A stretch of 64,000 nucleotides of DNA, from NCBI GenBank assembly GCA_951406725.2, contig OX597838.1, positions 15,004,001 through 15,068,000 of the forward strand, given 5' to 3'. The stretch comes from Octopus vulgaris. Lineage: Eukaryota. Below are positions 716-63,733 of this stretch, one piece after another. Each line of letters starts with the position of its first letter. The first letter of the stretch is position 1. Position numbers and translations under genes: made by a program. The notes beneath the pieces are model-generated. The model saw only the letters and a program-made list of their open reading frames with translations. It was not told the DNA's origin and searched no databases.

Positions 716-1892
716 TTATACGTATGTATATATATATATATATCCTTTTAGTAGGAAAATGTAATATTTCCAGTATGACAGTATGCTATTGAGAATTCAG
801 TGCAGACGGGCAGGGTATGTTCGAATTAAAGATTATCACATTGCGAAAATTATTTTCATTGCCCAACAAGCAGAGGGATACCGCGGTAAAGAAGACCCAT
901 CCTTATGTATAAGGATGAATTGAAGAAGTCAGTAAAATCTCATCAGCTTAATTTGACATCTTGGTAAAGTTATTACCTAGGTCGATTTGCATCTGAGCAA
1001 TTTGAGTTGAAGAAACAGAACAATATAAGAATTATATCCTGCAACCAACGAACACATTTATGCAATCCCGCGCAAGATCAAAATCATCAGTGTTCCCTTT
1101 GTGACTTCACAGAAAAATCCATATCTGCACTCAAATTATATTGGCGCATCCATTGTAGACAGATACAGCTTTTATTTTCAATCCTTTTTTATCCTTTCCT
1201 TCAAACACTCATTCGTCTAAAGTGACGGGTGTGACCATCCGTTTTGTATATAATATGTGAACGAATTGTAGAATGAGCATTCTGCTCCTGTTTCTTTTAA
1301 TTTCTCTATAAAAATATTTCTAAGGAGATTCTATATTTTAAACATTTGAGCGTTACGAAAGTGTGTAAAAAGAATTTCACCAGTTCAATTTGTTTCAATT
1401 ATTTCTCTCCTTTATGTAACTCTAAACTTTATACCTTATCCCTAAGACTTAACTATCAACCTTAATCTGAAGCCCAACCCTAGCCACAAACCGAATTCTT
1501 CTCTGTGGGATTGTAAAATGTTTAAAATATCCAATTTAAGAAACATTTTTTTTAAAACAAAATGTCAACAATGGAGAATTTACTGCTGGTCGTCTAATAC
1601 GAAACCGAGAGTTTCAGAGCAAGGAAACTTTTTTCTTTAAATGGAATTTTAAACTTTTCTTTGAGAACCATAAATAAATTTCCCCAAAGAACAGACTACA
1701 AGAATGTTAGGTCTATGGCAGTTCTTATTGCAAAACAAGGTCAATGAATGTATATAGTTTAATTTATAGGATGTTCATATGAAAAATGTATTGTTTAAAA
1801 AAATCGCAGACATGGTCGTGTGAAGAATGTCACATCATAAACAAGATGCCTTCCACGTTTATTGTACTCAACACCAATGTTTCAAATATTGA

Positions 1893-2515
1893 TTCGAAAT
1901 TTAGGCATCGGCCAACAATTTCGGGGGAAAAAATGGTTAAGTCGATTACGTCGACCCCAGTGCTCAACTGGTACTTATTCGATCGACCTCGAAACGATAA
2001 AGACAACAGGGACGAAATTTGAACTCAGAACGTAGCATCGGACGAAATACCTATTTCTTTACTACCCACAAGGAGCTAAACATAGAGGGGACAAACAAGG
2101 ACAGACAAATGGATTAAGTCGATTATATCGACCCCAGTGCGTAACTGGTACTTATTTAATCGACCCCGAAAGGATGAAAGGCAAAGTCGACCTCGGCGGA
2201 ATTTGAACTCAGAACGTAGCGGTAGACGAAATACCGCTAAGCATTTCGCCCGGCGTGCTAACGTGTCTGCCAGCTCGCCGCCTATTGAACGGACGAAATA
2301 CCTATTTTTTTACTACCCACAAGGGGCTAAACACAGAGGGGACAAACAAGGACAGACAAACGGATTAAGTCGATTATATCGACCCCAGTGCGTAACTGGT
2401 ACTTATTTAATCGACTCCGAAAGGATGAAAGGCAAAGTCGACCTCGGCGGAATTTGAACTCAGAACGTAACGACAGACGAAATACCGCTAAGCATTTCGC
2501 CCGGCGTGCTAACGA
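1893..2515 (-). mobile_element. SINE-D nest: old diverged copy (1893-2050) with two young copies (2051-2283, 2302-~2515)
   Basis: Head ggcggcgagctggcaga with A-box-like tggcagaatcgttag and B-box gagttcaaattcc, body gtcgactttgcctttcatcctttcggggtcga. 12-bp direct repeat cggacgaaatac at 2039-2050 and 2290-2301. Confidence 0.9.
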
Positions 2516-3249
2516 TAAACGTTTCAAATATTCAAAAGGAAGGATTATTGAAAGTAAGACATTTCGGCGCTTCTTCGTGTCCAGACATTCGCGAAAGTGA
2601 AAGTATTTTGGCAAAAGTAGAAGGTTTCCAGGCCGAACTGTGACAAAGTATTTTCCTATAAGCTGAAATTATTAAAGAACAAAAGTAAAATAATTGACTG
2701 TAAAAATACAGGTGAGACGCTATAAAACAGGTAATGTGATGTCGTCTTTGTTGAAATTGGATTCATCAATATTTTTACAGAGATGTAAAAAGCACCTTGG
2801 TTATCAAGTACTGATGGGGTGGGGAGGGAAGCACAAACACACACACTCACATACATACACACATACATACATATATATACACATACATACATACATACAT
2901 ACATACATACATACACGCACACATACATACATACATACATACATACATACATACACACATACATACATACATACATACATACATACATACATACATACAT
3001 ACATACATACACACATACACACATACACACATACATACATATATTCATACATACGTATATATCCTTCATTTTTTTTTACCTTTTTCAGTCAGTCATTATA
3101 CTGCGGCCATGCTTGAGCACCGCCTTGAATTTTTAGTCAAATGAATCGACCCCAGTATTTTATTATTTGGCTCATGGTACGGTGAGCATTAAAATAATAG
3201 TCCATCAAAAGTATTTTCTAAAATAAAACTTTAGATTTATGGAGGGAAA

Positions 3250-4828: not shown

Positions 4829-5062
4829 CTATTTTTTTACTACCCACAAGGGGCTAAACACAGAGGGAACAAACAAGGACAGACAAACGGATTCAGTCGT
4901 TTATATCGACCCCAGTGCCTAACTGGTACTTAATTTATCGACCCCGGAAGGATGAAAGGCAAAGTCGACCTCGGCGGAATTTGAACTCGGAACGTAACGG
5001 CAGACGAAATACGGCTACGCATTTTGCCCGGCGTGCTAATGTTTCTGCCAGCTCGCCACCTT
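4829..5062 (-). mobile_element. SINE-D full-length young copy with TSD
   Basis: Complete head-to-tail copy; direct repeat taacatagaaga at 4816-4827 and 5108-5119. Confidence 0.9.
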
Positions 5063-22903: not shown

Positions 22904-23317
22904 CTATTTCTTTACTACCCACAAGGGGCTAAACACAGAGAGGACAAACAAGGACAGACAAACGAATTAAGTCGATTACATCGACCCCACTGCGTAACTG
23001 GTACTTAATTTAAGGACTCCGAAAGGATGAAAGGCAAAGTCTACCTCGGCGGAATTTGAACTCAGAACGTAACGGCAGACGAAATACCAATTTCTTTATT
23101 ACCCACAAGGGGCTAAACACAGAGGGGACAAACAAAGACAGACATAGGTATTAAGTCGATTACATCGACCCCAGTGCTTAACTGGTACTTAATTTATCGA
23201 TCCCGAAAGGATGAAAGGCAAAGTCGACCTCGGCGGAATTTGAACTCACAACGTAACGCAGACGAAATACCGCGAAGCATTTCGCCCGGCGTGCTAACGA
23301 TTCTGCCAGCTCGCCGC
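22904..23317 (-). mobile_element. SINE-D dimer with one head and an imperfect TSD
   Basis: Internal junction at 23087/23088; atataatttaatac (22890-22903) versus atacaatttgatac (23318-23331). Confidence 0.88.
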
Positions 23318-35962: not shown

Positions 35963-36894
35963 CTCTGCGACAACAACAATAACAATAATAATAACGATGG
36001 TTTCTGATTTAGGCACAAGGCCAGCAATTTTAAAGCGGAGGGGTAGGGTTAGTCGATACTATCGAGTTAACTATTTGACAGGTACTTTATTTTATCGACT
36101 TCAAAGGGATGAAAGGCAAAGTTGACCTCAACAGGATTTGAAGTCAACATAAAGAGCCGAAACGAACACCACAAGGTATTTTTTTTCAGACGTTCTAATG
36201 TCCGGAGACAAATGTTATTTCGAGCATATGCCAGAAATTTAGGGGAAGGGTTTAGCCGAATACATCGACTGCATTTTATCGACCCTGGAAGAAGGAAAGA
36301 CAAAGCTGAACTCGGCAGGGTTTGAACTCGGAATGCAAAGAGTCTGAAGAAATACTGCAAAGTACTTTCTGACACTATAACGATTCAGCCAGTTCTCTGC
36401 TTAATTGTGGTTTCAAATTTTGACACAGAACCAGTAATTTAGGGGGAAGAGGAGTAAGTTGATTACCTCATTCTAACGGGGTCGATAAAATAAGTACCAA
36501 AGTACCAATTGAACATTGGTACTGATCTTATCGATCACTATATGATGAAAGGCGAAGACGACCTCGGTGGAATTCGAACACAGAACGTAAAGACGGGCGA
36601 AATTCCGCTAAGTATTTTTCCCGGCGTGTTAACGATTCTGCCACCTCACCGCCTTAGTTCTCTGCTTAATAATGATAATAATGGTTTCAAATTTTGGCAC
36701 AAGGCCAGCAATTCTCGGAGAGGGGCTAAGTTAATCAAACTGACCTCAGTGTTCAGCTCGTACTTATTTTATCGACCCCGAAAGGTTGAAAGACAAAGTC
36801 GACACCGGTGGCATTTGAACCCAGAACATAAAGACGGTTTTAAATTGATGCTAATCAAATTAATATCCAATTTTCCACCCTCATTTTACTTTTA

Positions 36895-45825: not shown

Positions 45826-47500
45826 TTAAGGCAGCGTGCTCGCAAAATCCAAAACGAATCGCAGAATTTACTTTGGAGCAATTACTGCTGACTCTTTACG
45901 TTCTGAGTTCAAATGCCACCGAGGTCATTTTTACCCTTCATCCTTTCAGAGTCGATGAAATAAAGTCCCCTGGGGTTGATGTAATAGACTAGCACCCGCC
46001 CACTAAAATAGCTGGTCTTGTGCCAAAACTTGAAATAGGAATTTTTACTGCTCTGGATTAAAGCGGCGAGCTGGCAGAACCGTTAGCACGCCGGGCAAAA
46101 TACCCAGCAGCGTTTCATCCGTTTTTACGTTCTGAGTTCAAATACCGCCGAGATCATTTTTACCCTTCATCCTTTCAGAGTCGATGAAATAATGCCCCCT
46201 GGGGTTGATGTAATAGACAAGCACCCGCCCACTGAAATAGCTGGTCTTGTGCCAAAATTTGAAATAGGAATTTTTACTATTCTGGATTAAAGCGGCGAGC
46301 TGGCAGAACCGTTAGCATGCCGAGCAAAACGCCTAACAGCATTTCATCCGTCTTTACGTTCTGAGTTCAAATACCGCCGAGATTGACTTTGCCTTTCATT
46401 TTTTGGGGGTCGATAAAGTAAGCACCAATAAAGCACTGGGGTCGATGTAGTAAACTGTGCTTCTCCCTTATATTTCAGGCTTTGTGCCTATAATAGAAAG
46501 GATTATCATCATTCCCGTTAGAATCGTTAGAATGCAGGGAAAATTTCCTCGCGGCATTTGTATCCTGAGTTGAAATTCCGCCGACGTTGACTTTGCCTTT
46601 TATCTTTCGGGGTCGACAAAATAAATATCAAGTAAACTTTGGGGGTCGATGTAACCGACTTAACCCCCTCCTCTGAAATTGCTTCTGTCAAAAATTTGAA
46701 CCCATTATTATTAAAGCGGTGAGCTGGCAGAAACGTTATCACGCCGGGCGAAAAGCTTTGCCGTATTTCGTCTGCCGCCACGTTCTGAGTTCAAATTCCG
46801 CCGAGATCGAACTTTGCCTTTCATCCTTTCGGGGTCGATTAAATAAGTACCAGTTACGCACTGGGGTCGATATAATCGACTTAATCCGTTTGTCTGTCCT
46901 TGTTTGTCCTCTCTGTGTTTAGCTCCTTCCTTGTGGGTAGTAAAGAAATAGGTATTTCGTCTGCCGCTACGTTCTGAGTTCAAATTCCGCCGAGGTCGAA
47001 CTTTGCCTTTCATCCTTTCGGGGTCGATTAAATAAGTACCAGTTACGCACTGGGGTCGATATAATCAACTTAATCCGTTTGTCTGTCCTTGTTTGTCCTC
47101 TCTGTGTTTAGCTCCTTGTGGGTAGTAAAGAAATAGGTATTTCGTCTGCCGCTACGTTCTGAGTTCAAATTCCGCCGAGATCGACTTTGCCTTTCATCCT
47201 TTCGGGGTCGACTAAATAAGTACCATTTACGCACTGGGGTCGATATAATCGACTTAATCCGTTTGTTTGTCCTTGTTTGTCCTCTCTGTGTTTACCCCCT
47301 TGTGGGTGTGGGTAGTAAAGAAATAGATATTCCGTCCAGTTATACACCCCGAGTTCAAGTTCCACCGAGGTCGACTTTGCCTTTTATCGTTTCGGGGTTC
47401 GATAAAAATATTTACCAGTGACGTACTGGGGTCGGCGTAATCGACTTAATAATCGACTTAATCCCTCCTCCGAAACTGCTGGCTTTGTGCCGACAATTGA
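45826..47500 (+). mobile_element. Cluster of ~8 co-oriented SINE-D units, including a ~228-bp tandem duplication and a 4-unit nest (46713-47500)
   Basis: Junctions tail|gtatttcg at 46951/2 and 47136/7, and tail|atattccg at 47326/7. Confidence 0.9.
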
Positions 47501-63127: not shown

Positions 63128-63733
63128 AAGGCGGCGAGCTGGCAGAATCGTTAGCACGCCGGGCGAAATGCGTAGCCGTATTTCGTCTGCCGTTACGTTC
63201 TGAGTTCAAATTCCGCCGAGGTCGACTTTGCCTTTCATCCTTTCGGGGTCGATAAATTAAGTACTAGTTACGCACTGGGGTCGATGTAATCGACTTAATA
63301 CCTATGTCTGTCATTGTTTGTTCCCTCTGTGTTTTTAGCCCCTTGTGGGTAGTAAAGAAATAAGTATTTCGTCTGCCGTTACGTTCTGAGTTCAAATTCC
63401 GCCGAGGTCGACTTTGCCTTTCATCCTTTCGGGGTCGATAAATTAAGTACCAGTTACGCACTGGGGTCGATGTAATCGACTTAATCCCTTTGTCTGTCCT
63501 TGTTTGTCCCCTCTGTGTTTAGCCCCTTGTGGGTAGTAAAGAAATGGGTATTTCGTCTGCCGTTACGTTCTGAGTTCAAATTCCGCCGAGGTCGACTTTG
63601 CCTTTCATCCTTTCGGGGTCGATAAATTAAGTACCAGTTACGCACTGGGGTCCGATGTAATCGACTTAATCCCTTTGTCTGTCCTTGTTTGTCCCCTCTG
63701 TGTTTAGCCCCTTGTGGGCAATAAAGAAATAAG
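63128..63733 (+). mobile_element. SINE-D trimer with a single head
   Basis: Junctions at 63363/4 and 63547/8; imperfect TSD aaataggaa on both flanks. Confidence 0.92.

Follow-up and report, generated by a model that had tools for sequence, protein, structure and literature searches.

Repeated insertion of a young Octopus vulgaris SINE at a fixed spot in its older relatives

The composite locus and the element

The analyzed DNA, here called the window, is a stretch of 64,000 nucleotides from Octopus vulgaris (contig OX597838.1, positions 15,004,001 to 15,068,000). Close to its beginning lies a composite of young and old SINE sequences, and four further loci with young copies of the same family follow downstream. 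O1, O1b and O2 are working names for older SINE families, and A-box-like and B-box-like denote parts of the SINE head, labels that follow the known consensus. The features are:

1879..1890, no strand: outer 12-bp direct repeat, distal copy, probably the TSD of the old host SINE
1891..2050, minus strand: old host SINE, present from element position 50 up to its tail, O2-like old family
2039..2050, minus strand: inner TSD GTATTTCGTCCG, downstream copy, equal to host positions 50-61
2051..2283, minus strand: full-length young SINE of the T-tail subfamily, a rare 'join'-type insertion with TSD
2052..2116, minus strand: LINE-derived tail (positions ~168-232) with a small hairpin, common to the 3' ends of L1/Tx1-type LINEs
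2223..2235, minus strand: target site of the element itself (positions 49-61), flanked in the head by the A-box-like and B-box-like parts
2284..2289, minus strand: six extra bases from TSD to head
2290..2301, minus strand: upstream copy of the inner TSD, which in turn served as target for the second young copy
2302..2514, minus strand: second young copy (positions 21-233), a seamless 'anneal'-type insertion that probably replaced the host head
2521..2532, no strand: outer 12-bp direct repeat, proximal copy
4829..5061, minus strand: dispersed young monomer with TSD TCTTCTATGTTA, at a non-SINE site starting GGT
22904..23317, minus strand: young-young dimer, head plus two units, junction 23087/8
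46716..47450, plus strand: head plus three young units plus old host body, junctions 46951/2, 47136/7 and 47326/7
63129..63731, plus strand: head plus three young units, the last with a C-type tail, junctions 63363/4 and 63547/8

Read in element orientation, the composite starts with the outer repeat at 2521-2532 and continues with a young copy from its position 21 (2302-2514), GTATTTCGTCCG, the six extra bases, a full young copy (2051-2283), again GTATTTCGTCCG and the body and tail of the old host, before it ends with the outer repeat at 1879-1890. The 12-bp repeat GTATTTCGTCCG at 2039-2050 and 2290-2301 (minus strand) had been pointed out in an earlier note on this DNA and is located there, and all eight junctions of a young tail with GGTATTTCGTC were found at the positions claimed; 47326/7 is diverged and 23087, 63363 and 63547 differ at one tail base each. 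That note missed the outer 12-bp direct repeat AATATTTGAAAC (element orientation), which encloses the whole composite, the six bases separating the inner TSD from the head, and the fact that the majority of junctions are seamless 184-bp units without TSD. Short additions similar to the six bases are also present at dispersed full-length copies. The host SINE shows ~79-84% identity to the young copy and carries a private deletion, and a 32-base private stretch of it is unique genome-wide at ≤2 mismatches. Allowing ≤1 mismatch, the motif GTATTTCGTCCG occurs 20 times in the window (expected by chance 4.0), and the young tail 11 times (expected 0.01). Older SINE copies and fragments, some of them head to tail, are clustered at 45897-46666 and 36078-36830. 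When contigs from four other runs were compared with 1450-2810, SINE copies dominated the matches, no piece crossed the whole locus and an orthologue with an empty site was not recovered; one such contig departs from the window sequence at 1945.

The young SINE has a length of 233 bp, and its copies are non-coding and dispersed, with 43 clean TSD pairs. Its exact tails amount to 55,382 of the T-type, counted with a filter on one downstream base, and 15,792 of the C-type in the 2.8-Gb assembly containing the window, to which all genome-wide counts refer. The head is presumably of tRNA type, with a B-box-like GAGTTCAAATTCC recognized by eye; ARAGORN reported 0 genes, no credible Rfam match was obtained, and the fold of the whole element has a z-score of -1.58. 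Octopus tRNA-derived SINEs termed OK, OR1 and OR2 were reportedly described by Ohshima and Okada in 1994, and the young SINE presumably belongs to the same broad group. As in SINEs with a partner LINE, the 3' end has ~46 nt in common with LINE loci (L230/L248) and a longer stretch with another one (L241). The young unit is free of any run of four Ts and thus of a T4 terminator.

Scale of self-insertion and independence of the hosts

Insertion of the young SINE at a fixed spot in its older relatives is a genome-wide phenomenon of tens of thousands of events. The exact 29-base junction of tail and GGTATTTCGTC was found 22,077 times, while the reversed-pattern control gave 0 matches. Sequences downstream of the tails, whose genome-wide randomness would have spoken against the earlier note, are nonrandom: about 65 of 100 exact T-type tails (the first listed, from the start of C1, judged by eye) run into the site. 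In the contiguous 464-kb block around the window, 26 of 50 T-tails are located at the site compared to 2 of 22 C-tails. The same block has a young tail at 27 of 77 SINE sites containing NGTATT, some of the occupied ones being local duplicates, versus 6 of 1,062 non-SINE NGTATT sites; the numbers are 2/478 for non-SINE sites with at least six matching bases and 0/94 for those with 7-9. Behind 328 tails, a set that includes loci chosen for having the junction, SINE sequence follows 182 times in sense and twice in antisense orientation, and about one third of the tails are dispersed. At O1 sites, 30 were joined and 31 not, compared to 10 and 71 for O2 and O1b together; as these loci were chosen for tails, the ratio alone is meaningful. 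Occupation is more frequent in the old family that agrees with the putative trailer (see below) in its majority sequence than in families with GGC. For one older family, 1,853 exact sites were tail-joined and 1,617 head-attached genome-wide, counted with patterns that differ in stringency.

The hosts are independent older copies. Among 80 O1 hosts (85 minus local duplicate and poorly aligned units), the inserted unit is 3.0% and the host 5.8% diverged at non-CpG sites, so that hosts are about twice as diverged, and the unit is the younger part in 60 cases against 14 (p=1.6e-9). For young dimers the values are 2.5% for the unit and 3.6% for the host (39:12 of 57). A comparison of all 85 O1 hosts (3,570 pairs) revealed a single pair with seven rare variants in common, from loci ~9 kb apart, and the remaining pairs fit the permutation null. 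Linkage between variants of unit and host was absent in 18 tests, and hosts are as old as free copies picked likewise (7.2% vs 6.8%). Where arrays end in a further junction (60 cases), the distal unit belongs to old families in 42, to truncated or other sequence in 13 and to diverged young tails in five. A dimeric SINE spread by a fixed master should have two equally old and linked halves; here the unit is younger (60:14), linkage is missing and siblings are missing. The descent of all dimers from one pre-formed dimeric master, raised in the earlier note as the competing case, does not match these old and diverse distal units without siblings. What stands of the proposed steering to own relatives is repeated, independent insertion at one register in older copies; the restriction to a single nucleotide is not supported, and a role of existing copies as safe harbours would presuppose a benefit that is hypothetical. 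Near-identical composites a few kb to ~140 kb apart were also noticed (L361/L362; L289-L291; L047/L048) and are local segmental duplications.

Arrays of young units are mostly short. Leaving out edge-cut arrays, 154 of 229 contain one young unit, 60 two and 15 more; hence 75 have at least two, with a 184-bp unit that is shorter than the SINE, as in SINE-derived satellites. Long homogenized arrays are found among the longer ones alone, since 60 of these 75 are dimers. Adjacent young pairs (n=96) have a private variant in common in 28% of cases, mostly in arrays of three or more, compared to 5% of random pairs, and 72% have none; the listed matches include series of as many as ten exact junctions, spaced by 184-187 bp. 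Because of this excess of common private variants, local DNA duplication clearly adds units to arrays of three or more.

The target site and the 5' junction

Among the dispersed insertions, 25 T-tail copies with clean TSDs were analyzed. Their pre-insertion targets begin GGTAT-, GATAT- or TATAT-like (positions 0-4: G16, G13/A11, T21, A17, T17), and TSD copies that differ at position 0-1 carry the trailer-type start (GG, TA or AG, by eye) on the downstream copy in 8 of 9 cases. Upstream of the junction, no clear match to the SINE was detected in these 25 targets; a G at position -6 (12/25) does not correspond to the SINE site. Hosts with a joined tail resemble the young copy over 49-61 and show host-type sequence from 62 onward, without a gradient. 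The earlier note had assigned the target to one nucleotide, which is narrower than the data: any nick at element positions ~50-61 yields the same junction, with the host resuming by 62, and the nick cannot be placed to one base because the RNA end and the target are alike. A hairpin is predicted in which the target site makes up the 3' arm (-15.7 kcal/mol for RNA, ~-8 in the best fold of the DNA), and this hairpin could attract nicking.

The last ~46-64 bases of the element match the 3' ends of LINEs whose 1,132-aa ORF2 contains an APE endonuclease, an RT and a zf-RVT domain and whose 459-aa ORF1 has a CCHC knuckle. From this domain architecture we assume that the tail-sharing LINEs are of L1/Tx1 type, although their homologues carry no clade names. 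The best-matching tail-sharing LINE had 0 of 19 3' junctions at the SINE site, and 0/19 on G[GA]TA compared to 10/25 for the SINE (p=0.002); these 19 copies stem from one young family that may differ from the mover of the SINE. The C-tail sister subfamily uses a different junction, at position 16 (1,308 exact; 12 of 20 in old hosts), and is present at the T-tail site in ~6-7 of 100 copies. The tail-sharing LINE found first was rejected as partner, as it lies in (TATC)n and matches the tail less well.

Several side observations concern the LINEs and further sites. A young L1/Tx1-type LINE family (L191-L220, e.g. G000:C1:18927) lies in (TATC)n microsatellites at most of 30 loci, with ~98% identity among long copies and 5,577 exact 3' ends, and is possibly a new, microsatellite-specific family. 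Copies of the tail-sharing LINE with intact 1,132-aa ORF2 are present at L301-L303, L223, L227 and L234, and some intact LINE copies are directly followed by the apparent start of another one. A hairpin of 4-6 bp with a CUUGU-like loop and changed stems (L199, L230, L245, L161, L402, L404) recurs in the tails of both young and old SINEs and at several LINE 3' ends; judged from this sequence feature, older SINE families may use the same LINE group. Many full-length heads are preceded by a SINE cut at positions ~97-107 (GACTTTGCCTTT), possibly a third hot site. Many C-tail copies are followed by TATATTT-like sequence, which suggests a further master with such a trailer.

At the 5' side, a TSD, in the earlier note the rule, turned out to be the exception, at ~5 of 253 junctions (~2%): six of 253 junctions not chosen for TSDs were flagged as two-head/TSD type, and one of these (L112) is a dispersed copy. 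At the other junctions, the first ~60 bases of the host have apparently been swapped seamlessly for young sequence. Heads of composites are young, with a median divergence of 5.7% equal to that of young monomers, compared to 17.1% for free O1 copies (p=1.5e-8). In 48 O1 composites, host-type bases at 62-65 were kept in two, and no spread of young alleles beyond position 61 was seen. A TSD abuts the head in 30 of 49 O1 composites. Mismatches between the outer TSDs amount to 8/250 (3.2%) in young T monomers, 26/423 (6.1%) in O1 composites and 9/77 (11.7%) in O2 composites; the difference to young monomers is significant for O2 (p=0.007), and not for O1 (p=0.10 vs young, 0.053 vs free O1). Free O1 copies reach 12% (six copies), half of it from one low-complexity TSD. 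These values favor retention of the host TSDs, with significance for O2 alone. A case for whole-composite copying from a TSD test on 7-8 incidental free O1 copies (one TSD) was discarded, as matched selection gave 6/10.

Full-length copies follow the motif 203 times, compared to 64 for a control motif with few cases having short gaps. Of 30 motif-head copies inspected, several (L034, L039, L051) contain host-specific variants in duplicate, and about nine turned out not to represent TSDs. At L023, a long duplication is joined at internal homology. Head-only SINE tandem arrays with 64-65-bp and 84-bp units (G000:C10:17996024-17996505; G000:C22:20052857-20053641; L043) apparently grew from two-head insertions.

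Mechanism and relation to known systems

We consider it rather probable that the young SINE is inserted in place at positions 49-61 by pairing of an RNA trailer, copying by a LINE RT and annealing of the cDNA to the host head. The RNA would read past the tail into GGUAUUUCGUC and further, both the trailer and its length being presumed, and this trailer would pair with the nicked target at 49-61. The reverse transcriptase of an L1/Tx1-type LINE would copy the RNA, and the new cDNA, which matches the host head, would anneal upstream and replace the first ~60 bases of the host. The product would be a seamless head, a 184-bp unit and the host, and in ~2% of events direct joining would keep the TSD and both heads, as at 2039-2301. 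Each new junction could in turn give RNA with the same guide, because the unit lacks a run of four Ts. The scheme builds on direct observations, namely the junction counts, the enrichment, the age and independence of the hosts, the young heads, the target bias of dispersed copies and the tail common with LINEs. Several points count against it. None of the 94 non-SINE sites that match at 7-9 bases carries a tail; short pairing alone is thus insufficient for the 50- to 100-fold excess, and a longer trailer, upstream homology or both are needed. The outer-TSD comparison for O1 lacks significance, and the predicted hairpin at the target could attract nicking. Furthermore, the near-complete head replacement exceeds the prediction of simple heteroduplex segregation and fits whole-composite copying.

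This last point leads to the alternatives. Most junctions might be read-through composite RNAs, retrotransposed whole from the last tail, with few true self-insertions of the TSD type at an ordinary microhomology rate. This would explain the young heads with a TSD at the head (30/49 O1 composites), is permitted by the missing T4 terminator and agrees with the similar hairpin of old tails and with join-type events making up just ~2% of junctions. However, it is disfavored because sibling hosts are absent in 3,570 pairs, bar one local pair; the host in the window is unique, unit and host variants are unlinked, hosts age like matched free copies (7.2% vs 6.8%), the TSDs of O2 composites are decayed like old ones, and many hundreds of active sources would be required. 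We regard it as distinctly unlikely. An origin at the DNA level, by tandem duplication with GGTATT as microhomology, by unequal crossing-over or by gene conversion with dimers as donors, is in line with the 28% of adjacent pairs with common private variants and with the listed runs of up to ten junctions, but the other 72% of pairs, the 42 of 60 distal units from old families, which are beyond duplication, the sharp switch from young to host sequence without gradient and the full-length copies with host-specific TSDs (203 motif-head copies vs 64 in the control) speak against it. As the sole cause it is refuted by the old-host and TSD loci, and as a general account very unlikely.

A LINE endonuclease or a DNA hairpin might also direct nicking to the site, with RNA pairing being secondary. 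Tx1 elements are often target-specific (PMC4494074), a related LINE family sits in (TATC)n at most of 30 loci here, a hairpin is predicted at the site (-15.7 kcal/mol as RNA, ~-8 as DNA), and such nicking would explain the excess over short microhomology. Yet the LINE that matches the tail best occurs at the site in 0/19 cases and shows no GGTA/GATA bias, the C-tail subfamily with the same body and presumably the same enzyme uses its own site 16 and reaches only ~6-7/100 at this one, and dispersed targets are without a clear SINE match upstream of the junction. We therefore consider this possibility unlikely.

Coming back to RNA-guided insertion in place, it could amount to a self-propagating homing loop, in which a first landing at position 49 of a relative would give read-through RNA that then guides there, the guide is passed on via the flank, the host's promoter half is taken over and about half of the best-preserved copies in one older family are colonized. 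We offer this loop tentatively and with some doubt. If it were true, target choice would be inherited through the flank of the SINE, and a Tx1-type RT would be retargetable by a few RNA bases.

The individual steps are known from other systems. For R2, annealing of the template tail and seamless 'anneal' versus duplicating 'join' 5' junctions have been described experimentally (PMC11371274), the efficiency of R2Ol is raised by read-through target sequence (PMC6530143), L1 priming needs just 4-10 matching bases (PMC3649969) and R1 re-inserts into its own TSD, which results in tandems (PMC2718515). R2/PRINT insertion into 28S rDNA resembles our proposal in that the 3' tail of the template pairs with the downstream target and 5' annealing is seamless with a minority of duplicating joins (PMC11371274, PMC6530143, PMC2718515); its off-target sites match the primer region alone. 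For the octopus SINE, such R2-like tail pairing is suggested by the TSD starts and the overwritten bases. In R2, however, a host gene is found by a site-specific protein; the octopus SINE is non-autonomous and targets its own family, at a site that appears to be set by the RNA and not by the enzyme. Tx1-Mar of crocodilians moves SINEU into Mariner-N4, also a Tx1-mobilized SINE with a strong repeat preference and tandem insertions around the TSD (PMC4494074), but this target is common with the partner LINE, in contrast to the SINE itself as target and 0/19 for the tail-sharing LINE here. Squamate SINE-derived satellites and bivalve tandem SINEs likewise occur at many loci as head-to-tail units that are shorter than the SINE, for which unequal recombination was suggested and, in passing, same-locus insertion also allowed (PMC10702118, PMC11481361); unlike these, most of the octopus arrays are dimers with a fixed junction whose units differ in age, and many have an older family at their end. 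In the gene conversion or replacement of older Alus, young subfamily sequence also takes the place of a part of an older copy, whose old flanks are retained, but this concerns ~2% of copies without a fixed register or an added unit (PMC554112), compared to the majority outcome at one register here. The accessible part of the Octopus repeat annotation does not contain the words 'nested' and 'target' (PMC13282606), and the family might be included in its supplements as a tandem consensus. In the literature searched, main texts with few subscription papers, no SINE was found that targets its own family at a fixed register; PMC9795677, PMC4824008 and PMC3747384 served as background only.

Taken as a whole, the phenomenon is real, large and unusual, and is built from known steps. 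It is a natural case with tens of thousands of events, where the site appears to be chosen by the passenger RNA and not by the enzyme, and where 5' ends are apparently joined mainly by annealing. As the two sister subfamilies differ in tail and self-site, the determinant of target choice in non-LTR elements becomes directly testable. Furthermore, the phenomenon provides an insertion route to SINE-derived tandem repeats, and the mixture of ages within composites can make age profiles and copy numbers of SINEs misleading in such genomes.
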